Origin: an uncultured Candidatus Saccharibacteria bacterium
GTDB lineage: Bacteria; Patescibacteriota; Minisyncoccia; Phycocordibacterales; Phycocordibacteraceae
NCBI GenBank assembly: GCA_964550425.1
Contig: CAZJZB010000001.1
Location: forward strand, 3,509-67,508
Direction of reading: 5' to 3'
Length of the DNA stretch: 64,000 bases
The position numbers and the translations under genes were made by a program. The notes under the pieces are model-generated. The model was not told where the DNA came from. It ran no database searches and saw only the letters and a program-made list of their open reading frames with translations. Positions 5,211-55,387 of the stretch are shown one piece after another (the first letter of the stretch is position 1; each line of letters opens with the position of its first letter).

Positions 5211-6371
5211 TCAAGTGCCATTCTTGTCAAGTGCGTCAATGCCGGGGAGGGTACCCGTGGCAAGGAAATCAAGCATCGCGCCGCCGCCGGTGGAGACGAA
5301 AGAAAAGCGTGGCAAGAGACCGAGTCCTTCAATTGAGGCAACCGTGTCGCCGCCGCCCACTACTGAATATGCGTTTGAAGAGGCAATGGCACGCGCAAAA
5401 GCATCGGTCGCATTGATAAATCCATTTTCGTAATTTCCCAAGGGGCCGTTCCAGAGGATGGTCTTCGCTTTCTGTGCGAGGTTCGACAGGAGCGCAACGG
5501 TGCCTGGACCATGATCAAGAATAATTTCATCAGATCGTACCTGCCCGGCTGGAGCGATACGCGCCTCTAATTGCACATTCGTAGTTCCCAATAATCTTGC
5601 GGGTATCACCAGCGAGTCCATCGGCAATACCAGTTTCGGATGAGCGAGGAGTTTCTTGATTGTGTTTTCGCTGGCGCTCGAAACAAGCGATTTTCCCACC
5701 CCCAATCCTAATGCTTTAAGAAAATCGTTTGCAAGCGCTCCGCCAACAAACACATGATCATATGTTTTTAATAATGTCGTAAGCACCGCCTCTTTGGTAC
5801 TGAATTTCGCTCCACCAATGACCGCGAGCGCGGGATGTTGTGGTGCGAGTGCCCGTGACAGCTCCTTCATTTCTTCCTCAAGAAGAATTCCGGCATACGA
5901 GGGGAGAAGTTTTGGGACACCGATGATGGAGGCATGCGGCCGATGACAGGTGTCAAAAGAATCCTGCACGAAAATGTCGGCGAGAGAAGCGAGTTCTTGT
6001 GCGAAAGCGCGGTCATTCATCCGCTCGCCGTTGTCGCGCCGCAGATTCTCCAGGACAAGCACGCTGCCGGGTGCAAAGTCGCGGATCGCGGCGCGCGCTC
6101 CCTTTCCTATGGTCTCGGGGAAGAACGAAACATTTGGGAGAAGTTTTCCAAGCGCTTGAGCAACCGGTGCGAGGGTCTCGGTCCCCTGTTCACCCAAGTG
6201 GCTTATGAGCACGACCCTCGCGCTACGTTCGGTAAGGAAACGTATAGTTGGTAGCGCGCGCCGCAGGCGATAGTCGTTTACAACCTTCCCATTTATAACA
6301 GGAACATTGAGCGCCGCCCGCACCAGTATCGGAATATTCTCAAATAGTTGTATGTCGCGAACGCTTTTCAT
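5211..6371 (-). CDS. pgk: phosphoglycerate kinase
   Basis: VLENLRRDNGE, ISHLG, GGGDT, STGGGA motifs; 386 aa. Confidence 0.9.
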   Translation of the reverse strand: MKSVRDIQLFENIPILVRAALNVPVINGKVVNDYRLRRALPTIRFLTERSARVVLISHLGEQGTETLAPVAQALGKLLPNVSFFPETIGKGARAAIRDFAPGSVLVLENLRRDNGERMNDRAFAQELASLADIFVQDSFDTCHRPHASIIGVPKLLPSYAGILLEEEMKELSRALAPQHPALAVIGGAKFSTKEAVLTTLLKTYDHVFVGGALANDFLKALGLGVGKSLVSSASENTIKKLLAHPKLVLPMDSLVIPARLLGTTNVQLEARIAPAGQVRSDEIILDHGPGTVALLSNLAQKAKTILWNGPLGNYENGFINATDAFARAIASSNAYSVVGGGDTVASIEGLGLLPRFSFVSTGGGAMLDFLATGTLPGIDALDKNGT

Positions 6372-7117
6372 GCCCGCACCAGTTGCTTCATGAGTAGTGT
6401 AAAGGTATGAGCATCGACTGATGCGTGTCCGATGAGGAAGCCGTCGATCCGCGAGCTCGCCGCGAGCTCGCGGATGTTTTCCGGTTCAACCGAACCGCCG
6501 TAGAGGACAAGCGTGCGAGAAGCGTTTTTTCCGTGCAGGAGTTCCGCAAGCACTTTGCGGATGTATAACATCATCTCGGCAAGGTCGTTCGGCTGGATTG
6601 CAAGAGCGGCTGTCTTTCCGATTGCCCAGATGGGCTCGTAGGCAATAATGACCTTCACGCGTTCTTTTGGTGCGAGAGACCCAATCGCCTTTGTAAGTTC
6701 TTCACGTATGAAAGCAAGATAGCGGCCTTCATTATCGCGCTCATGTTCGCCGATGCACAGAATGGGTGTGAGTCCGTGAGCGAGAGAGTGGGAAAGTTTC
6801 TCGGCAATGATTACATCAGTATCGCCAGCCGCGCGTCGCTCAGAATGACCGATTATGGCGTAGGTGGCGCCCGCTGCCGCATATGCCTGCGCAGTCGCTT
6901 CGCCCGTCTTCGCGCCGCCGGTTGTGCGAGACACGTCTTGCGCCGCAAAAGCAACAGCCGATTTGTTTCTCGCCGTGAGCGCACTAAGAAGCGGCGAGGG
7001 CGGCGCGAGTACGATTTTACTCCCCGTTTTTTTCGCAAGTTTCTTGCTGAGCGCAAAGAGCTTCTTTGCTTTTTTTACATCTTCAACATACGCTTTCCAA
7101 TTCGCGATAATGAGCAT
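6368..7117 (-). CDS. tpiA: triosephosphate isomerase
   Basis: NWK, IGHSERR, AYEPIWAIGTG signatures; 4-nt overlap with pgk. Confidence 0.9.
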   Translation of the reverse strand: MLIIANWKAYVEDVKKAKKLFALSKKLAKKTGSKIVLAPPSPLLSALTARNKSAVAFAAQDVSRTTGGAKTGEATAQAYAAAGATYAIIGHSERRAAGDTDVIIAEKLSHSLAHGLTPILCIGEHERDNEGRYLAFIREELTKAIGSLAPKERVKVIIAYEPIWAIGKTAALAIQPNDLAEMMLYIRKVLAELLHGKNASRTLVLYGGSVEPENIRELAASSRIDGFLIGHASVDAHTFTLLMKQLVRA

Positions 7118-7124
7118 GACCTAC

Positions 7125-7168
7125 AGTATACCAGCCCGTCCATTAGTTAGAGGAAGGGCTGGTATACT
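7125..7168. promoter_or_regulatory. perfect 13-bp-stem inverted repeat in the divergent tpiA/pilin intergenic region
   Basis: AGTATACCAGCCC-N18-GGGCTGGTATACT. Confidence 0.4.
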
Positions 7169-7174
7169 TCTAAG

Positions 7175-7591
7175 GTGATTTTTGCAAACAAAAGACGCGG
7201 ATGTACCCAGCACTATTCTTATAGTGCTGGGTTCACCCTGATTGAAATGTTGGTCGCACTTTTCATCATAAGCGTGACGGTCGTTTTTGTGACTATTGTC
7301 ATCGGGACGATCAAAATTACTCGTGACGCAACGCACGAAAATGTCGCGTTTCGTATCGCGGAAAGCAAGATCGATGAACTTCGCGCGGGAGGATACGCCG
7401 CACTCCCGGCGAGCGGTTCGTTTTCCAATCCAGAACTCACGAAATTGCCGCAAGGAGTGGCGAGCACCAGTGTCACCGACTGGAATGCGCAGATAAAACA
7501 AGTGGCAGCGGGCGTCTCGTGGCAGGGCGCAGACGGCTTTATGCGATTTGTTTCGCTCACGACGCTTATCACCCAGTCGGGCGGTCTCTAA
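7175..7591 (+). CDS. prepilin-type N-terminal cleavage/methylation domain protein (pseudopilin)
   Basis: G|FTLIEMLVALFII class-III signal peptide motif. Confidence 0.7.
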   Translation: MIFANKRRGCTQHYSYSAGFTLIEMLVALFIISVTVVFVTIVIGTIKITRDATHENVAFRIAESKIDELRAGGYAALPASGSFSNPELTKLPQGVASTSVTDWNAQIKQVAAGVSWQGADGFMRFVSLTTLITQSGGL

Positions 7592-7593
7592 AT

Positions 7594-8226
7594 ATGCCCA
7601 GAGCTTTCACTACCAAGCGAGTGAGACAAAAGAAAAATTCTGATTTTTCTTTTGCGAACGAGCGCAGGGAGCAAACCCGGCTCCGCGGGTTTACACTCGT
7701 CGAGGTACTCGTCACCGTCGCCCTTTCCACGATCCTCATGCTCGCAATTTCACAGCTCTATGTCATATATGGGCGTATCATTATATTCCAACAATCGTCA
7801 ATCGCCGCCGCCTTGGATGGGAGCAATATTATGGACGCTGTTCGCACGGCAGGTCTGCAGGCAACACGGATTATTGCAACCCATACATTTTCCGGCACCA
7901 GTTATAATTCCGGAACAACGACCGCAATCTTTGAACTTCCCGCTATCGATGCTTCTGGCGCCATCATTCCTAATGGATACGATTATATCGGTATCTATGC
8001 TTCAAGCACGGACGCGTATCGCATTGTCGATGCTGCATCCGGCAGCGCTCGCGTCTCGGGGGAGAAGCGGCTGACGAACGTTCTGGGCGCACTCAGTTTT
8101 ACGTATGACAATTCGAACTTTCCTTCGGTAACAAGCGTTACGGTCAATGCGACAACAAGTGTCATATTAAGAGGAGAAGTGACGCAAACACATTTCCACG
8201 AGGATATCTATTTGCGAAATTTATGA
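7594..8226 (+). CDS. prepilin-type pseudopilin
   Basis: RGFTLVEVLVTVALS prepilin motif. Start taken at the first ATG after the upstream stop; ORF-track start 7519 overlaps the preceding gene. Confidence 0.65.
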   Translation: MPRAFTTKRVRQKKNSDFSFANERREQTRLRGFTLVEVLVTVALSTILMLAISQLYVIYGRIIIFQQSSIAAALDGSNIMDAVRTAGLQATRIIATHTFSGTSYNSGTTTAIFELPAIDASGAIIPNGYDYIGIYASSTDAYRIVDAASGSARVSGEKRLTNVLGALSFTYDNSNFPSVTSVTVNATTSVILRGEVTQTHFHEDIYLRNL

Positions 8227-9989
8227 AACGGCTCTCACAACCCTTCGCGCGCGGATCCATCCTCCTCCTTGCTCTTATCATGAGCTCCATCATCATGACC
8301 GTTACAGTTGGTTTTTTCAATTATTTTGGAAGCGCCGTGCGCGCCGAACGATACGCCTTCGCTTCGGCGCAGGCGCGCGCGCTTTCAGAAGCGGGTATCG
8401 ACAAAGCGGTCTACGAACTCAATCAAAACAGCAACTATTCGGGAGAAAGCGATATAGCCCTTGGCAATGGCACCTTTAGTATCTCGGTTGCAAGCATCGA
8501 CAGCAACTCGAAACGCATAACCGTTACCAGTTTTGTACCGAATAGTGTGCAGCCGACTGCGACAAAAGTCGTACAAACAACAGTCAGTATAGATTCATCC
8601 GTCGTATCGTTCCATTACGGGGTCCAAATAGGAGACGGCGGCGTTACGATGAGTAGCGGTTCTCAGATTATTGGCAATATATTTTCTAACGGTAATATTT
8701 CCGGAAGCGGCACTATAACCGGCGACGCGACGGTTGCGGTTGGTATCGATTCGGTCGCCGATCAGCAATGGACCGTACAGGACCGTTCTTTTAATGTAGG
8801 AGATGTGTCCGCAGATGCGGCAGTCGCGCAAGCCGTGAAGCCGTCGGTAAACGCTTCTCTTGCGGGAATAAAACTGAATATGAAAAAGGTTGGGAACCCT
8901 GGAGATCTCGTCGTCAAATTCGTGGCCGACAACAACGGGAAGCCGTCGACGACCGTGCTTGCCAGCGGTACGGTCCCGGCTTCGCTCGTCACCTCCTCCT
9001 ACGGTTTCGTCGATGTTACGCTCGATAGCACCCCTTCCCTTACGGCGAACCAGTCATACTGGATTATCGCGATCGCCCCCGTAAATGTGAGCAACTATTT
9101 CATCTGGGGATTGGATATCAATGAGGGGTACTCGCGCGGCGCCGCCAAACGCAGCAGCAACTGGAGTGCGCAGCCAGCATCATGGAGCAATATCACCGGA
9201 GATCTGAATTTCAAAATGTACATAAGCGGTATTTCAACCTCGCTCACCGGAGTGACGGTAAATGGAAATGCGTGGGCGTCTTCGCTTTCAGGATGTACCG
9301 TCGGCGGTAATGCGTCCTACCAGACCACTTCAAGTTGCACTGTTTCGGGTACGAGCACTTCCGGAGTAATTCCCGCCACGCCGGCGCCACTCCCCATTTC
9401 TGACGCGCAGATCGCGGAATGGGAGACGATTGCCGCAGCGGGAGGTACGATAGCGGGGCCGTATTCGATTTCCGGTACCCAGACATTAGGACCGAAAAAA
9501 ATCGATGGGGATCTCACTGTGACAAATGGAAACACCCTCATACTCTCGGGCCCCGTGTGGGTGAATGGGGATGTGGAGTTTTCAAATAACGCCACACTTC
9601 TCGTCTCGCCGAGTACCGGTACGGGCGGCGCGATAATTATTGCGGATGCGACGGGAAATACGGCAGTCAAAGGGGTCGTGAATATCTCGAACAACGTCAC
9701 CATCAACGGGAACGGAAGCACAAACAGTTTCCCAATGATCATAAGTACGAATACCGGATCGAATGCGATTGAATTATCCAATAATGCGTCCGGTGTCATC
9801 CTGTATGCGCCGTACGGCGGCGTAGAGGTCAGTAATGGCGCCAGTGCAAATCAAATAACGGCAAAACACCTGGAACTGGAAAATAATTCAAGCGTGACGT
9901 ATGTGAACGGACTGCAGAACGCCAGCTTCTCAAACGGTCCGGGCGGCTCGTGGACAGTAGTACCGGGCACCTACGCGATCACGAGATAA
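8223..9989 (+). CDS. large pilus-associated protein (PilX-like hydrophobic N-terminus, Gly/Asn/Thr/Ser-rich body)
   Basis: Translationally coupled to the pseudopilins (4-nt overlap). N-terminal hydrophobic segment, then repeated NGN/SGS-rich segments. Confidence 0.45.
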   Translation: MKRLSQPFARGSILLLALIMSSIIMTVTVGFFNYFGSAVRAERYAFASAQARALSEAGIDKAVYELNQNSNYSGESDIALGNGTFSISVASIDSNSKRITVTSFVPNSVQPTATKVVQTTVSIDSSVVSFHYGVQIGDGGVTMSSGSQIIGNIFSNGNISGSGTITGDATVAVGIDSVADQQWTVQDRSFNVGDVSADAAVAQAVKPSVNASLAGIKLNMKKVGNPGDLVVKFVADNNGKPSTTVLASGTVPASLVTSSYGFVDVTLDSTPSLTANQSYWIIAIAPVNVSNYFIWGLDINEGYSRGAAKRSSNWSAQPASWSNITGDLNFKMYISGISTSLTGVTVNGNAWASSLSGCTVGGNASYQTTSSCTVSGTSTSGVIPATPAPLPISDAQIAEWETIAAAGGTIAGPYSISGTQTLGPKKIDGDLTVTNGNTLILSGPVWVNGDVEFSNNATLLVSPSTGTGGAIIIADATGNTAVKGVVNISNNVTINGNGSTNSFPMIISTNTGSNAIELSNNASGVILYAPYGGVEVSNGASANQITAKHLELENNSSVTYVNGLQNASFSNGPGGSWTVVPGTYAITR

Positions 9990-28199: not shown

Positions 28200-28262
28200 T
28201 TAGTTGGTGGTTATGCTAATCGGGCAGTGGTCGGAGCCGTAGACGTCAGGGTAGATAACAGC
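28200..28262 (-). pseudogene. 3'-terminal fragment of a second exodeoxyribonuclease III gene
   Basis: Encodes ...VIYPDVYGSDHCPISITTN*, cf. the xth C-terminus ...ICSDIYGSDHCPVSITIG* at 28797. DNA GGGCAGTGGTCGGAGCCGTAGA is repeated at 28223 and 28820. No upstream xth body. Confidence 0.5.
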
Positions 28263-28313
28263 TTGACTTTGAAGAGGGGAGGTAATAAAGTAAGAAAGTA
28301 AGGAATTTAATAT

Positions 28314-28589
28314 ATGCAAACAATAGAAAAAATACAAAAGATAACAAGCAAGGGGCAGATTACTCTGCCAGTGGCATGGCGACGTCACACTGGAGCACAT
28401 ACCATTTCTGTAACAACAAGAGGGAATCGAATAGAGATAGCTCCTGCGAGGCTCCAAAAAGTTTCCGAGCACACGGTTTTTAATGCCGTCCGAGATAATA
28501 ATGGGAAGGGAATAAAAATTGATAAACTCATAAGAATCTTGGAGAAATTAGTAAAAGAAGATGAACGACATAGAAAAATTACTGCGTAA
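28314..28589 (+). CDS. AbrB/MazE/SpoVT-type antitoxin
   Basis: SKGQITLPVAWRR swapped-hairpin motif. Confidence 0.6.
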   Translation: MQTIEKIQKITSKGQITLPVAWRRHTGAHTISVTTRGNRIEIAPARLQKVSEHTVFNAVRDNNGKGIKIDKLIRILEKLVKEDERHRKITA

Positions 28590-28800
28590 GGTTCATCCTC
28601 GCGATAAAGTCGTTCTGCTAGAGACCTTGCGTGCGCTCAGGCATGGGGAGTTGGACAGGTTCCGCGTGGAGAAAGTAACCGGTAGTGATTTTTATAAAGT
28701 ACGAAAAGGAAATTTCAGATTCGTTTTTCATCATGAAAACAGCGCGATTGTCGTTGACACGGTAAAGCTCCGCAATGAGAAAACATATCGCGGTTTTTAG
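28561..28800 (+). CDS. RelE/ParE-like toxin
   Basis: GSDFYKVRKGNFRFVFHHENSAIVVDTVKLRNEKTY; overlaps the antitoxin by 29 nt. Confidence 0.6.
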   Translation: MNDIEKLLRKVHPRDKVVLLETLRALRHGELDRFRVEKVTGSDFYKVRKGNFRFVFHHENSAIVVDTVKLRNEKTYRGF

Positions 28801-29564
28801 CCGATGGTTATAGAAACAGGGCAGTGGTCGGAGCCGTAGATATCACTGCATATCTCGGCTTTCTTAATATGTTTTATGAATTCGTTCGCAACGAAGAAAT
28901 AATCGATCCGCCAGCCGACATTTCTATCGCGGGCGCGCGTCTTCATATCCCAATATGTATAGGCATTCGCGGTATGAGGGTGAAAATGCCGAAATGAGTC
29001 AACGTAACCGGCGCCGACAATTTCATCTATCCATGCACGTTCTTTCGGTAGAAATCCAGTATTTTCTTCATTCTCTTTAGGCCTTGCGAGGTCTATTTCC
29101 TCATGCGCAGTGTTCACGTCGCCGCAGAATATGACCGGTTTTTGCTTGTGTAATTTCTCTGTGAATGCGAGAAAGGCGTCGTAGAAACGCATTTTATAAT
29201 CAAGACGTTCCGGACCTTGTCCGCCATTTGGGAAGTAGACATTCAAGAGCCAGAAGTCCTCATATTCGGCTCCGATAAGGCGTCCTTCCTGATCGAATTC
29301 CTTTATTCCCATACCGTAGATGACCGACAACGGCTCGATCTTTGAATAGAGGGCGACGCCGCTGTAGCCCTTTCTCACCTGCGAGGATGAAAAGAAAGAG
29401 GAGAAGCCGGCAGGGGAGAGCATTTCCTGCGAAACTTGCTCCGGATTCGCTTTGGTCTCTTGGAGGCAGAAGATATCGGGCTTGGTGCCCTTCAAAAACG
29501 ATTCCCAATAGCCATTTTTTGCGAGGGATCGCAACCCATTTACGTTCCACGAGACGATTTTCAT
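28797..29564 (-). CDS. xth: exodeoxyribonuclease III
   Basis: WNVNGLR, CLQETK, GDFN-like, SDHCPV motifs. Confidence 0.9.
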   Translation of the reverse strand: MKIVSWNVNGLRSLAKNGYWESFLKGTKPDIFCLQETKANPEQVSQEMLSPAGFSSFFSSSQVRKGYSGVALYSKIEPLSVIYGMGIKEFDQEGRLIGAEYEDFWLLNVYFPNGGQGPERLDYKMRFYDAFLAFTEKLHKQKPVIFCGDVNTAHEEIDLARPKENEENTGFLPKERAWIDEIVGAGYVDSFRHFHPHTANAYTYWDMKTRARDRNVGWRIDYFFVANEFIKHIKKAEICSDIYGSDHCPVSITIG

Positions 29565-29632: not shown

Positions 29633-29673
29633 TATCCACTAAATACTGCTATAACAGGAATATAGTGGATACT
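29633..29673. repeat. nested-palindrome dispersed repeat, copy 1
   Basis: TATCCACTAAATACTGCTATAACAGGAATATAGTGGATA. Confidence 0.7.
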
Positions 29674-29707
29674 AGGCAGTGAAGAACATCCTTCTAGGAT
29701 TATGTAG

Positions 29708-30949
29708 ATGATATACTCAAAGCCGATGGACTTTTTGACAAACCAAAGAGGGTTTATTCAGATACCGCTTCTTATTGTAATCACTATAGGTTTTTTGATT
29801 TTAAGTGGTGAGGGATATGTAAGGTTTGAACAATACCAAGACCGTAAAGACAACGACGGCCTCTTCGTCAGTGAGGAATTCACGAAGAATCTTAACACTG
29901 AGTTTGCGACCGAGAATAATCAAAGCACCAGCACCCCAAAACTTTCGGAGGTTGAAAAGTTAAAAAATGAAGTGGCTGAGTTGAAATCAAAAAAAGAAGT
30001 AAATACAAAAACAAGCGAAGAACCCATCAAGAAAGCCTATGAAAAGCCCATTCTATCAAAGAAAGAGAAAACAGAAATAAATAAAGAAAAAATTATACAA
30101 ACGCCTCCCCCACAGAAGCCGGAACTATATTTGGGGAAAGACCAATTCATTTTTATACCAGTGAATTGGAATCGGGCCAAAGGGGACTTTGATATTTCTG
30201 TCAGCGCAGCAATGAAAGAATTTAAAAAGCAATATCTTGAGCTCCAGAAGCGCGCATTTCCCTTGCTGGATAGTGACGAGGCGTACTTCAATAGCAGATT
30301 TGAGGCAATCAACCTTACTAATTGCATAGATATCTGCCGTCTAGAAAGGTTGCCAACAAGCGGTTTTGATTTAGAAAACTTATGTTCAAACCAATGCCTT
30401 GATAAGAAACGACTCTATGACCCCTATCCAACCTTTATTGGTATAAGCAACGATGAAAAATTTTTTGGCAAAAACTTTCAAGAATACCTCACTATTTTAG
30501 TAGATCTGCGTAACTTGAGAAATGTATCGACCGTTGTACATGAAATCGGACATCTTTTTTGGTCTCTCTGTGACGAGTATAAGTATAGTTTGTGGCAGCA
30601 ACAAGATAAGTACTGGCCCGAATTTAAAGGAGTCAAAGGATGTCCTAATCCTTATCCGCTTACTTGTGCTGACCACCCGCAATGGATTAATAACGAAGAG
30701 AACTACCTTACATACGTGCACGGGCTTGGTCTCACCTGGGGAGGGTACAAACAGACCACTACTGACGAAAAAATTGAAAAAGAAACAGGTATCGCCTTCT
30801 GTCCTGGCGCAGTATGTACTCCGCAAGCAGGATACGATCAATGCAGAAGCACGATGGGACCCACTTTTACTCCGGACGATATACTATATTTTTTTGGAGG
30901 AAAACTAGAGACCAGAATTCCCATCGAGGCAATACTACCCCCTTGGTAA
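29708..30949 (+). CDS. secreted/membrane-anchored HExxH protein (putative zinc metalloprotease); AT-rich gene
   Basis: N-terminal TM helix, Lys/Glu-rich linker, Cys-rich C-terminal domain with HEIGHLF. Confidence 0.45.
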   Translation: MIYSKPMDFLTNQRGFIQIPLLIVITIGFLILSGEGYVRFEQYQDRKDNDGLFVSEEFTKNLNTEFATENNQSTSTPKLSEVEKLKNEVAELKSKKEVNTKTSEEPIKKAYEKPILSKKEKTEINKEKIIQTPPPQKPELYLGKDQFIFIPVNWNRAKGDFDISVSAAMKEFKKQYLELQKRAFPLLDSDEAYFNSRFEAINLTNCIDICRLERLPTSGFDLENLCSNQCLDKKRLYDPYPTFIGISNDEKFFGKNFQEYLTILVDLRNLRNVSTVVHEIGHLFWSLCDEYKYSLWQQQDKYWPEFKGVKGCPNPYPLTCADHPQWINNEENYLTYVHGLGLTWGGYKQTTTDEKIEKETGIAFCPGAVCTPQAGYDQCRSTMGPTFTPDDILYFFGGKLETRIPIEAILPPW

Positions 30950-40513: not shown

Positions 40514-42820
40514 ATGAGCTATACTCATTATATGAAAAAGGTTTTGGTTTCCATATCGATAATCGCAATAGTTGTTATTGGTGTAGTGCTCACGTCTTTA
40601 TTTTTTACTAAACCGGAAAGTATTACAACAAAAGATATTTCGTTGCCGCAAAAGACAAATAATACTTCTTGCGCTGTGATTTCATCTGCAAACAAGGTCT
40701 ATTGTTTTGGTGGACGCGATGGCAATATCGACTATGATTCCATTATCGAATACGACTTAACGAAAAAGGTTTTAGAAACAAAATCTACTAAATTACCAGC
40801 GCCAACTTTTGGTCATTCATGTGTGGAAGATTCTGGCTCAAATAAGATTTACTGTTTTGGTGGATACAGTCCATCATTCTCTTCCGCAATATTTGAATAC
40901 AACCCTCAAGATGGTGATCTAAGAACAAAGTCGGCGTATTTACCAAAAGGAACTGGCGGAATCTCCTGCGCAGAATTTCCTGAAAATCACAAAATTTATT
41001 GCTTCGGTGGATTCACAGGAGAAAGTATACCCGGACCATTAACCGAAGGTTCTTATGGAGAAGGAATCTATCGGAACGCGTTTGTGATGTCTAGTCAGAT
41101 TACGGAATACGACCCGAGTACAGACGCTATTGCAGTAAAGAAATCTGTTTTCCCTGATGGCAGAGATGACACTTCTTGTGTTTATAGTGTGAAAACTCAA
41201 AAAATTTATTGTTTTGGTGGAGGCAATGCGGACAGTGCCTTTGATCAAATTCTTGAATATGATCCATCCGTTGATAAATTGGCTATCAAGGAAGCAAAGT
41301 TACCAGCAAAAATGGAAATCCTATCGTGTGCCGAGAATTCCAATAACAAAATTTATTGCTTCGGCGGCAAAACCATCAGAGCTGATCAAAGCAGTATTCT
41401 GTATAATAAAATTTCAGAATATGATCCTGTTGCAGACCGGTTAGTTACAAGACCAATAACGTTGCCAGTCGCAATTGGCGGTCTTCAATGCGTTAAAGAT
41501 TCATCAACTCCTAACAATATACTTTGTTTTGGCGGTTGGGCAGAGAAATCATCGGATTTAATTTTCGAATATTACCGAGGAAATAAGATTTATCAGATAA
41601 TAGAATTTATTAAGAAATTTAAGCCCGTCCTACCTACTTGGCTAGAAAAAGCTTTTCAATTTGGCAGTGGTTCCTCAGATACCGTATATGACATGTATTG
41701 CGTTTCCCCGATAAAAATTCCTTTAGAGCAATCCGTTAATGCAGTTTCTGAAAGTGCTTCCCAATTATTTATTGACAAATTATATGAGAGTAGTTTGGAG
41801 GATTTAACATCTAATCTTAAAAATAAAATATATATTAATTCAGAAATACCAACCGCTCTTGCTCACATGGGAGTCAAATTGATACAAGCCGATCAATTTG
41901 ATGACGCCCTTGCTTTTCTTCAATGCGATGCTGAAAAATATTATCACTCGAGATCAATGTACATGCTTGCTCAGGTATATAAACATGGGAGCGCCGATTA
42001 TTTTCCTGGCTCGGTTATGAAAACAAAAATCGAACCAGATTTGAAGCAATCATATTTTTGGATTGCGGCCTTAATGCATATAGAATCTATAGAGAACAAT
42101 GGTCTTTTGGATATGTCGGATTCCGGCTGGAGTATTATTGGACTACTCGATTCTTTGCAGAATGATTCGTCTTTGAGTGACAATGCTCTTTTAACCAAAG
42201 AGCAGGAAGCCATCTCATTTGTGGGGAAAAGATACCCGGAAGTTCTTAATGGAGAAGCGTCTGTTTATGCCCACTCAATGCGCGCAATGATTCCTGCATT
42301 GGAAAATCCAGGAACCATTAAAAAAGAATCTAACAAACCTCCTACAGAACCAATTACTCCCAATATTGTCGTCGGTGCATATGTTAATAAAACGCACGGA
42401 TTAAGTATGCGTGTACCCACAGGATGGGCTTTTGATGAGAGCAACGCATACACGGTGTCTGGTGGACTTGTAGGAAGTATTGGAACTTTCTACGACCCAA
42501 AAATTGGTAGGGGTAGTGATAATGCATCTGCTCCGGATATATGGATACACTTTGGTTCTGCTAACGGGGCAGATTTGGATACCATTACGACGGATTTCCC
42601 AATAGAGAGTAAAAAAGTAATGATCTTAAAAAACGGTCTGCAGGCAGAAATTATCGTTTGGACATATACCGACCAAAAAAGGGGGCCTCGAAAACTTTTA
42701 AAACTAAACGTTATAAAAAACGATATCCTCTATTCTGTTGTGGGAGAATCGCTTGAATCAGACTGGGTGAAATATGGGAAATTAATTGAATCATCTGTAT
42801 TAACGTTCGATTTCATTTAA
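40514..42820 (+). CDS. membrane-anchored Kelch-type beta-propeller repeat protein with a C-terminal helical domain; AT-rich gene
   Basis: Six repeats of N/HK(I/V)YCFGG spaced ~50 aa apart; N-terminal TM helix. Confidence 0.6.
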   Translation: MSYTHYMKKVLVSISIIAIVVIGVVLTSLFFTKPESITTKDISLPQKTNNTSCAVISSANKVYCFGGRDGNIDYDSIIEYDLTKKVLETKSTKLPAPTFGHSCVEDSGSNKIYCFGGYSPSFSSAIFEYNPQDGDLRTKSAYLPKGTGGISCAEFPENHKIYCFGGFTGESIPGPLTEGSYGEGIYRNAFVMSSQITEYDPSTDAIAVKKSVFPDGRDDTSCVYSVKTQKIYCFGGGNADSAFDQILEYDPSVDKLAIKEAKLPAKMEILSCAENSNNKIYCFGGKTIRADQSSILYNKISEYDPVADRLVTRPITLPVAIGGLQCVKDSSTPNNILCFGGWAEKSSDLIFEYYRGNKIYQIIEFIKKFKPVLPTWLEKAFQFGSGSSDTVYDMYCVSPIKIPLEQSVNAVSESASQLFIDKLYESSLEDLTSNLKNKIYINSEIPTALAHMGVKLIQADQFDDALAFLQCDAEKYYHSRSMYMLAQVYKHGSADYFPGSVMKTKIEPDLKQSYFWIAALMHIESIENNGLLDMSDSGWSIIGLLDSLQNDSSLSDNALLTKEQEAISFVGKRYPEVLNGEASVYAHSMRAMIPALENPGTIKKESNKPPTEPITPNIVVGAYVNKTHGLSMRVPTGWAFDESNAYTVSGGLVGSIGTFYDPKIGRGSDNASAPDIWIHFGSANGADLDTITTDFPIESKKVMILKNGLQAEIIVWTYTDQKRGPRKLLKLNVIKNDILYSVVGESLESDWVKYGKLIESSVLTFDFI

Positions 42821-43294: not shown

Positions 43295-43537
43295 ATGGCT
43301 ACAACCAAAGAACGGATTCTGGTAACGCTGACGTCTGAAATGGCGAGGGCCGTGCGTGGTTACGCAAAACGAGACCGTGTATCGCAGGCATCTGTCTTTA
43401 CGCGCGCTATGCGTGCACTGATTGAAGATGAAGAGGACAAATATTTATCGGCAATAGGAGACAAAATTGCCGAGAATCCCGGGAAATTTATTTCTTCACG
43501 TGAATTCTGGAAACGGGTAAACAAGCGTCGCGCATGA
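43295..43537 (+). CDS. ribbon-helix-helix (CopG/ParD-like) antitoxin
   Basis: ERILVTLTSEMARAVRGYAKRDRVSQASVFTRAMRALIE. Confidence 0.6.
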   Translation: MATTKERILVTLTSEMARAVRGYAKRDRVSQASVFTRAMRALIEDEEDKYLSAIGDKIAENPGKFISSREFWKRVNKRRA

Positions 43538-43800
43538 GTCGTTATTCCATTAGTTTTACTAAACGAGCTGAAGATGATGCCGTTCGTCTCGATGCTTTTA
43601 TATTGGAACGCGCCAAATTGGCGATAGGAACAAAACTTGTGGTTGACCCATTCCGTTTCGGTAAATCGCTTGGATATTCTTTGCGCCATGTACGAGCGCT
43701 TCGAGTCGGCGACTGGCGTGTACTGTATCAAATTTCTGGCGCTGCAGTCATAATCCTCACAATTCGACATCGCAAGCAGGGTTATAGTGACCTCGCATAA
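43534..43800 (+). CDS. type II toxin RelE/ParE family
   Basis: LRVGDWRVLYQISGAAVIILTIRHRKQGY; 4-nt overlap with the antitoxin. Confidence 0.7.
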   Translation: MSRYSISFTKRAEDDAVRLDAFILERAKLAIGTKLVVDPFRFGKSLGYSLRHVRALRVGDWRVLYQISGAAVIILTIRHRKQGYSDLA

Positions 43801-44600
43801 TGCGCGCTAAAAAGAGTTTGGGCCAACACTTCCTGATGCACGCGCGCATCGCGGAGAGGATCGCGATGGTCGCGAATCTCGCGCACGATGACACCGTACT
43901 GGAAATAGGTCCGGGGACAGGGATGCTCACCCGCGCGCTGTTGCAGCGCGCGGGGAAGGTGGTGGCGATTGAAGCGGATTACGAACTTTTTTTGAAGTTG
44001 CACATTGAGTTTGCAAGTGAGATCGCGGATGGTCGCCTCAAACTCATACACGGCGACATCCGCAAATATCCACTAAATACTGCTATAGCAGAAAATAGTG
44101 GATACCATGTAGTGGCGAACATCCCCTACTATCTCACTGGCGAAATATTTCGAATGTTTCTTGAATCATCGAATCAACCAAGTGCGATAACGCTTCTTGT
44201 GCAGAAGGAAGTTGCCGAGCGTATCGCTCGCACAAAAAAGCCCCTCGACTTCGCTCGGGGTAAAGAAAGCATCCTCTCGCTCTCGGTGAAGGCGTACGGA
44301 ACAGCGAAGTATGAATTTACTGTACCGCGTGGGGCCTTTAAGCCCGCACCGAACGTTGACTCTGCAGTACTCACCATTCGTGATATTTCACGGAAAAACT
44401 TTTCAACGCTTGAGGAAGAACGGCGGTTCTTCGCTCTTATTCATGCGGGGTTCGCGCATAAGCGCAAATTCGTGCGGAATAATCTCGTTGATGCTGGTCT
44501 CCCTACCGGGGACATTCCCCTGAAAGCCCGCGCCGAAGACCTGTCGCTCTCTGTATGGATTTCCCTGAGCAAAATCGAAGGGCTTGGTATAAGTAGATAA
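43800..44600 (+). CDS. rsmA: 16S rRNA (adenine1518/1519-N6)-dimethyltransferase
   Basis: SLGQHFL, EIGPGTGMLT, NIPYY motifs. Contains a copy of the nested-palindrome repeat in frame. Confidence 0.85.
   Translation: MRAKKSLGQHFLMHARIAERIAMVANLAHDDTVLEIGPGTGMLTRALLQRAGKVVAIEADYELFLKLHIEFASEIADGRLKLIHGDIRKYPLNTAIAENSGYHVVANIPYYLTGEIFRMFLESSNQPSAITLLVQKEVAERIARTKKPLDFARGKESILSLSVKAYGTAKYEFTVPRGAFKPAPNVDSAVLTIRDISRKNFSTLEEERRFFALIHAGFAHKRKFVRNNLVDAGLPTGDIPLKARAEDLSLSVWISLSKIEGLGISR
44065..44108. repeat. nested-palindrome dispersed repeat, copy 2 (inside the rsmA coding sequence)
   Basis: AATATCCACTAAATACTGCTATAGCAGAAAATAGTGGATACC. Confidence 0.7.
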
Positions 44601-54292: not shown

Positions 54293-54329
54293 CCCCGTTA
54301 GAAGCGAGTCCTCGAGCTTTCTAACGGGG
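54293..54329 (+). terminator. hairpin after fusA
   Basis: CCCCGTTAGAA-N15-TTCTAACGGGG. Confidence 0.6.
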
Positions 54330-54382
54330 ACATCATCGCGAGCCGGAAGTAATTTAACCGACACTTCGTGTCCATCAACTAG

Positions 54383-54420
54383 TATCCACAAAATACTGCT
54401 ATAGCAGGAAGTTATGGATA
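54383..54420. repeat. nested-palindrome dispersed repeat, copy 3
   Basis: TATCCACAAAATACTGCTATAGCAGGAAGTTATGGATA. Confidence 0.7.
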
Positions 54421-54489
54421 ACGGTTAATGTTCCTTAACATCGCCTCATATCTTCAGTATAGCGTGTGTATGTGTGGTATAATCCGCGC

Positions 54490-54783
54490 ATGAACCCGAC
54501 GCTTGAAGAGATATCGGAGAAAGCACGACCCGTATTTGAAAAATATGGTGTGAAGCGTGCGCGCATCTTCGGCTCCTATGCGCGTGGCGAGGCTCGTCTT
54601 GATAGCGACATTGACCTTCTCCTCGATTTTGAAAAACCACTCGGTTTTGAGTTTTATACTGTCCATGAAGAACTTGCGGAAAAGCTCGGTCGCGAGGTGG
54701 ATGTAGTGACCGAAGGAAATATGAATAAATTTCTCCGTCCGTACATCATGCCTGATGTACGTCCACTGTATGAAAAGCGATAG
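54490..54783 (+). CDS. MNT-type nucleotidyltransferase antitoxin (type VII TA)
   Basis: RIFGSYARGEARLDSDIDLL. Confidence 0.65.
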   Translation: MNPTLEEISEKARPVFEKYGVKRARIFGSYARGEARLDSDIDLLLDFEKPLGFEFYTVHEELAEKLGREVDVVTEGNMNKFLRPYIMPDVRPLYEKR

Positions 54784-55123
54784 TCCCTACATTGCACAGA
54801 TGCTCGAATGTGCTGCGAAGATAGGGCGATATGTCGGCGAGATGAGTTACGAAGAGTTTCTCAAAGATGAAAAAACACAGAGTGCAGTACTGATGCAATT
54901 GCAGCAGATGGGCGAAATGGCAAAGCGAGTTTCTGAGAAAACGAAAACCGAAGTCGATGTGCCATGGAAGAAAATTGCTGGTTTCCGAGATGTAGTCGCA
55001 CATGACTATGTAGATGTTGATCTTGAGAACGCGTGGAAGATAATTTCTCTCGATCTAACTCAAACCGAGGCACCACTCGTTGCATATCTTAAGGAGCACC
55101 CTCTTCCAGAAATTAAAAACTAG
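54770..55123 (+). CDS. HepT-like (DUF86) RNase toxin
   Basis: Rx4HxY motif (FRDVVAHDY); overlaps the MNT gene by 14 nt. Confidence 0.65.
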   Translation: MKSDSPYIAQMLECAAKIGRYVGEMSYEEFLKDEKTQSAVLMQLQQMGEMAKRVSEKTKTEVDVPWKKIAGFRDVVAHDYVDVDLENAWKIISLDLTQTEAPLVAYLKEHPLPEIKN

Positions 55124-55192
55124 GACATCAGATGTCCTAAATTCACTTTACCTTATCATCCCACTATAGGTTACGTTAAGGTAAAGTTGCCG
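55124..55192 (+). promoter_or_regulatory. two strong hairpins in the long tuf leader
   Basis: TAGGACATC-a-GATGTCCTA and ACTTTACCTTA-N21-TAAGGTAAAGT; a TCCGACTCGAGTCGGA palindrome lies at 55321. Confidence 0.4.
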
Positions 55193-55387
55193 GCCTTCCT
55201 AAATTACATCAAATATGTTGGTAGGGTAGTTGCATTTATAAGTGTGTTTGCGTATAGTAACCCCAACGCATCTTGGCGTCGCTCTTTGGCTTCCTGCTGT
55301 TATTAGTGGCGAGCCGGAGTGTATTTCCGACTCGAGTCGGATTATTAATTCGTGATTTCAAATTATTAGTTAGATTAACCGATCACT

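Follow-up and report, generated by a model that had tools for sequence, protein, structure and literature searches.

A two-tier hairpin palindrome carried in frame by rsmA and repeated between genes in Kaiserbacteria-like genomes

A stretch of 64,000 nucleotides from contig CAZJZB010000001.1 (positions 3,509 to 67,508, deposited as an uncultured Candidatus Saccharibacteria bacterium), referred to here as the window, contains three copies of a palindrome of about 40 nt that folds as a two-tier hairpin; one copy lies in frame within the rsmA (ksgA) gene and the other two are intergenic. The explanation that fits the observations best, advanced tentatively and with somewhat less than even confidence, is that the element is a hairpin-forming DNA palindrome native to the rsmA coding sequence in a Kaiserbacteria-like clade of the candidate phyla radiation (CPR), that it resembles repetitive extragenic palindromic (REP) sequences and is prone to recombination, and that recombination has spread it.

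All three copies are read on the plus strand. Copy A (TATCCACTAAATACTGCTATAACAGGAATATAGTGGATA, 29633-29671) is intergenic, between the start of xth on the minus strand and the start of an AT-rich HExxH gene on the plus strand; copy B (TATCCACTAAATACTGCTATAGCAGAAAATAGTGGATA, 44067-44104) lies in frame within open reading frame (ORF) 43800-44600 and encodes YPLNTAIAENSGY; and copy C (TATCCACAAAATACTGCTATAGCAGGAAGTTATGGATA, 54383-54420) is intergenic, between fusA and an MNT/HepT module. The copies are solitary, 10-14 kb apart and without tandem units, and their GC content is 0.28-0.45. An earlier description made from the letters alone, called here the sequence-only reading, had reported three copies at essentially these coordinates and a two-tier hairpin in each, and both statements hold: the minimum free energies of folding are -12.6 to -18.9 kcal/mol, with z-scores of -3.0 to -5.5 relative to shuffled sequences. 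In copy B the layout consists of a 9-bp outer stem, a 4x4 A-rich internal loop, a 4-bp inner stem and a UAUA loop, and 13 of 13 pairs are Watson-Crick. Two details of the same description need qualification. The inner palindrome CTGCTATAGCAG is perfect in copies B and C only, copy A having one G>A mismatch in the inner stem, and the 7-bp outer inverted repeat does not extend intact to copy C, where the right arm reads ATGGATA and leaves a C.A mismatch.

The similarity of the three copies is far beyond chance. Searching the window for the 13-nt core with up to two mismatches returns the three known loci against 0.79 matches expected, the expected number of matches for the 39-mer is 0, and the family ranks first in a direct-repeat search of the window. 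A covariance model made from 14 family members and run unfiltered over the whole window matches copies A, B and C only, at 51-62 bits, the next match scoring 10.9 bits. A sequence-blind structural scan of the window for two-tier hairpins returned three sites, about the level of shuffled sequence, with copy B as the sole family member and no wider family. The dispersed, strongly structured repeat family of about 40 nt that had been described is thus real, and the description of it as an uncatalogued motif agrees with the Rfam searches: at the gathering score the window yields four tRNAs only, and at a permissive E-value the best match near the copies has an E of about 0.5 or worse.

The host gene of copy B (43800-44600, plus strand, 266 aa) scores above the NCBIfam ksgA equivalog cut-off (189 bits versus 171), and its frame is intact across the hairpin, as had been noted from the sequence. 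At 70-80% identity its product has numerous homologs, which bear the names Kaiserbacteria, Parcubacteria or Patescibacteria, and the gene order Xer-rpsO-NYN-...-UvrD-rsmA-...-rpsL-rpsG-fusA is common to the window and these relatives. The hairpin occupies a variable loop between GDI, the S-adenosylmethionine-binding motif, and ANIPYY, the catalytic motif. The GDI-ANIPYY segment has 20 residues, as in Escherichia coli KsgA; the segment of Bacillus subtilis KsgA is 4 aa longer. The sequence-only reading had postulated an insert of 13-14 codons in rsmA. With a loop length that is normal for KsgA, and with relatives that lack the hairpin differing by no more than 3 aa, the rsmA copy is not such an insert.

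Among 117 close rsmA homologs, about 50 have a 13-aa segment of the form 'YP(L/I)N....N.GY', about 12 have 'LNSRYSVK(D/E)G' and about 55 have a 10-aa 'FDIxxLPKGY'. The DNA of 12 orthologs reveals that the first two classes encode one and the same 40-nt architecture with different stem sequences, namely a 9-bp stem, a 4-nt loop, a 4-bp stem and a tetraloop, followed by the mirror image. The third class, 3 aa shorter and different in sequence, lacks the hairpin, as do all distant CPR rsmA genes, and about half of the 117 close orthologs therefore carry the hairpin-coding loop while the rest do not. The loop is a tolerant site of the enzyme, and the hairpin is one of at least three allele classes found there.

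Covariation was counted in 11 of the 12 rsmA hairpins for which DNA was at hand, all 11 sharing the architecture 1-9-4-4-4-4-4-9-1 (40 nt) without insertions or deletions. In these hairpins 86.7% of cells pair, in comparison with 29-48% in slid controls; changes on both sides occur in 8 of 13 pairs, and the observed covariation score is reached by none of 500 shuffles. The outer stem occurs as TATCCAC/GTGGATA, TATCCCT/AGGGATA, TGTACC/GGTACA and GCACCTT/AAGGTGC, and the inner stem as CTGC/GCAG, CTAC/GTAG and ACGC/GCGT. The peptide changes in step across the 117 homologs, TAIA accompanying GCx..GCA and TTTV accompanying ACx..GTA, with SRYS among the others, and the paired stem changes thus alter amino acids. 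Because the compensatory changes alter the protein, the constraint acts on nucleic acid rather than on protein. The sequence-only reading had proposed that rsmA orthologs be compared, and that a peptide retained without palindromic DNA would point to chance similarity; no such retention is seen, the palindrome being kept through compensatory changes. The 3' internal loop always contains AAA. The two internal loops, both rich in A on one and the same strand, do not complement one another. Counted on the sense strand, G.T and A.C oppositions number four and four among the rsmA copies and two and nine among the intergenic ones; an early impression of a sense-strand G.U bias, taken as a sign of RNA, came from five cases and disappeared in the full table (4:4). 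Without such a bias the structure may act as DNA or as RNA, and the balance leans, if anything, to DNA or to concerted evolution of the two arms.

A neighbour-joining tree constructed after masking of the segment shows the three allele classes intermixed; the tree is poorly resolved, and the case for allele switching rests on pairwise identities and two DNA alignments. The closest gene pairs are of differing class. Outside the segment, hairpin-bearing P0034 is 93.7% identical to P0118 of the 'SRYS' class and 89.5% identical to hairpin-less P0052, and the hairpin-bearing and hairpin-less members of the pairs P0003/P0030 and P0002/P0039 are 89.5% and 87.6% identical, respectively. Because the classes are intermixed in the tree and nearest neighbours are of unlike class, simple vertical descent of the rsmA hairpin is ruled out. 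Aligned DNA of P0034 and P0118 is 93-100% identical per 30-nt window, the exceptions being two windows at columns 481-540 (83% and 80%) and columns 181-360, where the flanks are 67-80% identical and the hairpin segment is unalignable. The diverged flank carried along in the exchange of rsmA alleles measures about 70-90 bp per side. Columns 181-360 accordingly mark the import of a tract of about 180 bp with the hairpin at its centre, not a precise insertion or excision, and the allele classes have been swapped between lineages by short-tract homologous recombination, faster than the genes diverge. The window rsmA is itself a mosaic relative to that of a related locus, L007.

The 3' flanks of the two intergenic copies in the window retain remnants of rsmA coding sequence. 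In the flank of copy A (29672-29691, plus strand), 15 of 20 nt agree, with the offset unchanged, with the rsmA codons that specify HVVANI (P about 0.001), and the direct-repeat search finds 82% identity over 34 nt. Beginning 16 nt downstream of copy C, the sequence AACATCGCCTCATATCT (54437-54453, plus strand) resembles rsmA AACATCCCCTACTATCT, which encodes NIPYYL and lies 13 nt downstream of copy B; the core agrees at 14 of 17 positions by eye, and the stretch 16-33 nt past copy C matches the NIPYYL codons at 14 of 20 positions in the best 20-nt window (P about 0.005). These statistics rest on two copies, A and C. The 5' flanks of the copies have no significant similarity, and the boundaries are sharp on the 5' side only. 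Subfamilies of the intergenic copies correspond to rsmA alleles: the widespread C-type subfamily (C, L001, L002, L003 twice and L006) has the sequence of the rsmA allele YPLPTAIAGSYGY of L133, and in L013 an intergenic copy of the 'LNSRYSVKDG' (RYS/SRYS) type follows a HicAB module inserted between rpsG and fusA. Since ANIPYY is the universal catalytic motif of KsgA, the direction of copying would be from rsmA to intergenic DNA, and the intergenic copies are probably secondary fragments derived from rsmA. This reverses the polarity of the sequence-only reading, in which the element had been inserted into rsmA.

Further members of the family occur in related genomes. A strict pattern scan (CCACNAAATACTGCTATARCAG, one genome per species), which is too strict and misses CCAT variants, returned six further copies in metagenome-assembled genomes (MAGs) labelled Kaiserbacteria or 'Saccharibacteria', with one or two matches per genome; a search of this kind had been proposed with the first description, and it does extend the family. 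The window has 3 copies in 64 kb, and the neighbourhood sampled in relatives has 1-4 per 20-60 kb. The part of MFMU01000014 covered (loci L003 and L010, about 24 kb) has four copies, all within about 13 kb, two of which flank a small ORF and one of which begins directly after the fusA stop codon, with a compensated T-A pair. The copies of L005 and L006 share about 30 nt of 5' flank. The MAG of L007, labelled 'Saccharibacteria', has a 78%-identical rsmA in the shared synteny; its label is doubtful, and the family is treated here as Kaiserbacteria-like.

Several MAGs in the comparison, CAZJKG010000003.1 (L007), CAZVYA01 (L001/L002) and CAYHMS01 (L005), were deposited as 'uncultured Candidatus Saccharibacteria'. 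The rsmA, rpsL, fusA and xer genes of L007 are 78-98% identical to those of the window, in the synteny of named Kaiserbacteria, and the Saccharibacteria label looks wrong.

Both intergenic copies of the window sit, as judged from gene order in relatives, at junctions of acquired cassettes. Upstream of copy C, 42 nt past the true fusA stop, lies a relic of a fusA 3' end (54323-54352, plus strand; ..NGDIIASRK, stop) that is closer to the fusA end of L003 (MFMU01000014) than to that of the window. On the other side of copy C, a toxin-antitoxin cassette of the MNT nucleotidyltransferase and HepT (54490-55123, plus strand) separates it from a second two-tier hairpin, hp2 (55146-55186, plus strand; CTTTACCTTA..CTATAG..TAAGGTAAAG), which is shared with L003 (848-891) and which also has a CTATAG centre and is otherwise unrelated to the main family. 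In L003 the orthologous hairpin copy lies 7 nt from hp2, and in the window exactly the MNT/HepT cassette is found between them; the fusA-tuf spacer of L129 is empty, at 285 bp. Copy A lies 37 nt upstream of the start codon of the AT-rich HExxH gene (29708-30949, plus strand), which has a weak Peptidase_M64 match and is inserted between xth and xer, genes that are direct neighbours in L015 and L041, with about 90 bp between them, and are separated by 464 bp in L027. The duplicated 3' ends of fusA, xth and rpsG indicate that cassettes enter by recombination that carries donor flanks along.

The xth 3' end is present twice in the window, at 28200-28264 and 28797-28861 (65 nt, 74% identical), and between the two lies a MazE-like toxin-antitoxin module (28314-28800), an arrangement that resembles a cassette footprint with a donor xth end. 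In L133 the rpsG 3' end (..HFAW, stop) occurs five times, at 7674, 8864, 8967, 9041 and 9619, at the borders of a series of small cassettes that lie between rpsG and fusA and encode membrane proteins, toxin-antitoxin and PIN products, and this region has the form of a tandem cassette accretion with duplicated gene ends.

The mechanism that these observations suggest is as follows. The palindrome would fold or extrude and thereby become a hot spot for breakage and recombination, would act as a short homology anchor, and fragments starting at the palindrome may be scattered by recombination or repair during the uptake of foreign DNA; on this account the copies would not have been moved by a transposase of their own. 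Several points weigh against this explanation. Breakage and recombination at the hairpin are inferred rather than directly seen. The hairpin is dispensable, since hairpin-less alleles thrive. A function under selection, possibly at the level of RNA, is suggested by the long-term upkeep of both stems, by their exact spacing and by the invariant AAA, and a model of a fragile site leaves this without explanation. No rsmA flank relic was found in the flank comparison for the other nine intergenic copies. In our reading, 8 of 11 oriented intergenic copies are co-directional with flanking transcription, which fits an RNA role, and an IS110-family transposase gene is located 414 nt away from the copy in L006. 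Finally, all related loci come from one chromosomal neighbourhood, and the pattern scan is too strict to count copies.

The strongest of the alternatives, possible although on balance unlikely, is a cis-acting RNA hairpin serving as a signal for mRNA processing, stability or pausing, or as a site for an RNA-binding protein. It would act within the rsmA mRNA and also, at operon junctions, in untranslated regions after fusA, after rplE and upstream of accessory genes. Such a role explains the upkeep of structure better than a native recombination-prone palindrome does. Both stems co-vary, the A-rich internal loops are on one strand only, one copy in L003 follows directly on the fusA stop and another, in L004, lies between rplE and rpsN, most intergenic copies run with their neighbouring genes, and the folding z-scores of copies A, B and C are -3 to -5.5. 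On the other hand, the sense strand carries no excess of G.U, no Rfam family covers the motif, about half of the close relatives have no hairpin in rsmA, and three intergenic copies (L010 18726, L005 and L013) are opposed to local transcription. An intrinsic terminator in particular, which would be a G+C-rich hairpin with a T-tract behind it, is rejected because no T-tract follows any copy, and a terminator scan reports none of them.

An unlikely alternative is that the hairpin is a site-specific recombination site recognised by its structure, of the attC or folded dif kind, at which the single Xer-type tyrosine recombinase or another enzyme shuffles cassettes. The positions of the copies at cassette boundaries favour this idea, as do ORF111 of L003, situated between two direct copies, the MNT/HepT cassette between copy C and hp2, a PaaX/Cas2-like gene of L028 flanked by two related long palindromes, and the presence of an Xer-type recombinase gene 1.4 kb from copy A. 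The family shares with attC sites a two-tier hairpin, an unpaired central spacer, structure conserved while sequence is free, and a place at cassette boundaries, often of toxin-antitoxin cassettes. Nevertheless, it has no RYYYAAC/GTTRRRY cores, the arms being TATCCAC/GTGGATA and variants, its length is about 40 nt rather than at least 57 nt, and it is accompanied by no integron integrase, attI or ORF-attC array; the sole tyrosine recombinase scores 128.6 against an integrase cut-off of 265 and is a syntenic housekeeping Xer. A dif or pdif Xer site has two 11-bp arms and a 6-bp (4-10) spacer and is present in one chromosomal copy (PMC2958812), whereas the hairpin has 9-bp arms 20 nt apart and several copies. 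In Acinetobacter, modules flanked by Xer sites are known mobile units, and there as here small accessory modules in conserved backbones are bounded by short recombination-prone sites (PMC12907356, PMC11705084), but pdif sites are 28-bp XerC/XerD duplexes with a 6-bp spacer and the hairpin arms, at their wider distance, are variable. Furthermore, other cassettes in these genomes are flanked by duplicated gene ends instead of the hairpin, the rsmA copy is without an inserted cassette, and the varying lengths of the flank relics speak for imprecise recombination more than for a crossover at a fixed point.

The mobile-element model that goes back to the sequence-only reading, a non-autonomous element of the type of a miniature inverted-repeat transposable element (MITE), REP or Rickettsia palindromic element (RPE), moved in trans by a transposase and inserted in frame into rsmA, is quite doubtful. 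Dispersal in unrelated contexts in several genomes and variable presence in rsmA among close relatives would be expected of it, and the L006 copy adjoins an IS110-family transposase gene with a long structured leader; IS110 elements insert into REP palindromes (PMC12288879, PMC11208160). Against it, no target-site duplication is visible by eye in the flanks of nine copies, the exchange tracts in rsmA, of about 180 bp, are those of homologous recombination, the KsgA loop length is normal, the rsmA flanks of intergenic copies imply the reverse polarity, and the copy number looks low. A tblastn search with the IS110-like protein of L006 found no relative in the window or at any other locus, not all window ORFs being annotated. 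Membership in the MITEs is rejected, the flanks of the nine copies sharing no target duplication and the boundaries being sharp on the 5' side only.

With REP sequences and REPINs the likeness is closer. In size, shape and location the element behaves like a low-copy REP: these are imperfect palindromes of about 35-40 nt, mostly intergenic, often just after stop codons and not coding alone, and copies A, C, L001-L006 and those of L003, at 38-40 nt, conform to a definition of 20-40-nt imperfect intergenic palindromes. REPs occur in hundreds of copies, and here copies look few (1-4 per 20-60 kb sampled) and form no inverted doublets. Moreover, one copy forms a conserved portion of the coding sequence of a housekeeping gene, and it is the apparent source of the others. 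No Y1 transposase (RAYT) was found among the window ORFs examined, not all of which are annotated. REPs are also targets of IS110-family insertion (PMC12288879), and in the present family one copy, that of L006, stands beside an IS110-like gene. RPEs are palindromic repeats that occur in frame in protein genes at surface-tolerant positions, and also between genes (cited in PMC1779305). RPEs are about 100-150 bp long and add peptide segments to many unrelated genes, whereas here 38-40 nt are found in rsmA only, the loop is replaced and not lengthened, its length is within the range of KsgA, and the element is polymorphic through homologous recombination with extensive compensatory change; membership is rejected.

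In L006 the IS110-family (Transposase_20) gene occupies 6105-7400 on the minus strand, its leader of about 390 nt (7401-7790) has a predicted fold of -141 kcal/mol, and the hairpin copy is at 7814-7853. The leader is possibly a bridge RNA. An 8-nt complementarity between the leader and a hairpin arm (TTTGTGGA / TCCACAAA) is at about chance level and was not used.

The sequence-only reading had also considered a protein-binding site. A duplex site for a dimeric DNA-binding protein, such as an operator, a site of the parS kind or two DnaA boxes in inverted order, is very improbable and largely refuted by the covariation. In its favour are the palindromic layout, the resemblance of the outer arms to the DnaA box TTATCCACA (exact in the L006 arm) and the position of several copies, 40-150 nt ahead of start codons. 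Against it, the arms are found as TATCCCT, TGTACC and GCACCTT, each with a compensating partner, where a base-specific site, such as a conserved TTATCCACA, would keep its sequence, and the two internal loops share their richness in A on one strand and do not complement one another.

Two further comparisons were made with known systems. TIGR arrays adjoin a Tas gene and are built of 36-nt units in tandem that contain edge/loop repeats or box C/D motifs (PMC12045711), and a TIGR-Tas array is rejected, the hairpin copies being solitary and without tandem units. Inverted repeats with both arms coding are described for mitochondrial genes of Nematomorpha (PMC6649704); those mitochondrial palindromes are numerous, perfect and as long as 284 bp, in contrast to one short two-tier hairpin in one bacterial gene with dispersed derivatives. 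A scan of viral contigs with the 17-nt core gave 35 matches, all of them chance 17-mers without arms. The family differs from every family tested in being low-copy, born in coding sequence, polymorphic through homologous recombination and richly covarying.

A wider proposal, itself rather unlikely, is that the rsmA hairpin is a balanced, recombination-shuffled and structure-selected master copy of a chromosomal 'docking site', the derivatives of which mark and promote the capture of accessory cassettes, toxin-antitoxin modules for example, in CPR bacteria; if so, it would represent a gene-borne att-like or REP-like recombination system of an undescribed kind. To our knowledge, CPR/Patescibacteria have tiny genomes with few recognised mobile elements, and the gain and shuffling of their accessory genes are poorly understood. 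The rsmA hairpin is a clear case of a nucleic-acid structure conserved inside a coding sequence at the expense of the protein sequence, and its locus exhibits both frequent short-tract homologous recombination between diverged lineages and cassette insertion marked by duplicated gene ends and gene-derived hairpin fragments. If the hairpin promotes recombination, it offers a testable handle on the genome plasticity of uncultured episymbionts; if it is an RNA signal, it constitutes a new cis-regulatory motif with a ready covariation data set.

Other features of the same neighbourhoods were recorded. Directly upstream of rsmA, at 43295-43800 of the window, lies a ParD-like/ParE toxin-antitoxin pair, the stop of which overlaps the rsmA start. 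The equivalent place in L010 is taken by a diverged ParE module (about 44% identical), a ParE-like match (36%) is just upstream of rsmA in L014, and L008 and L128 have no ParE module upstream of rsmA. The UvrD-like helicase upstream of rsmA in L010/L011 (6384-9440) has 1018 aa and a weak Pfam intein-splicing match, its relatives having about 650 aa. Three genomes, that of the window (55265-55292) and those of L003 and L129, have in common a conserved stretch, AACGCATCTTGGCGTCGCTCTTTGGCTT, some 100 nt ahead of tuf, and GCTCTTTGG resembles a boxA antitermination motif.

A gene of 195-197 aa with a Pfam PaaX_M/Cas2-like domain, and by eye an N-terminal winged helix, is an inserted cassette at two different sites, in L028 and in L042 (12102-12695). 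In L028 it lies between perfect palindromes of 56 nt (9203-9258) and 50 nt (9892-9945) that have the common core CAGCAAATTCTCGC(G/T)ATAGCGAGAATTTGCTG, and the outer part of the first, GTATCCCCTAAA, resembles a hairpin arm. Within the window, ORF 40514-42820 contains repeats of about 26-56 nt with AAATTTATTG(C/T)TT(C/T)GGTGGA, present four or five times (40689-41383) and giving a repeated peptide motif.

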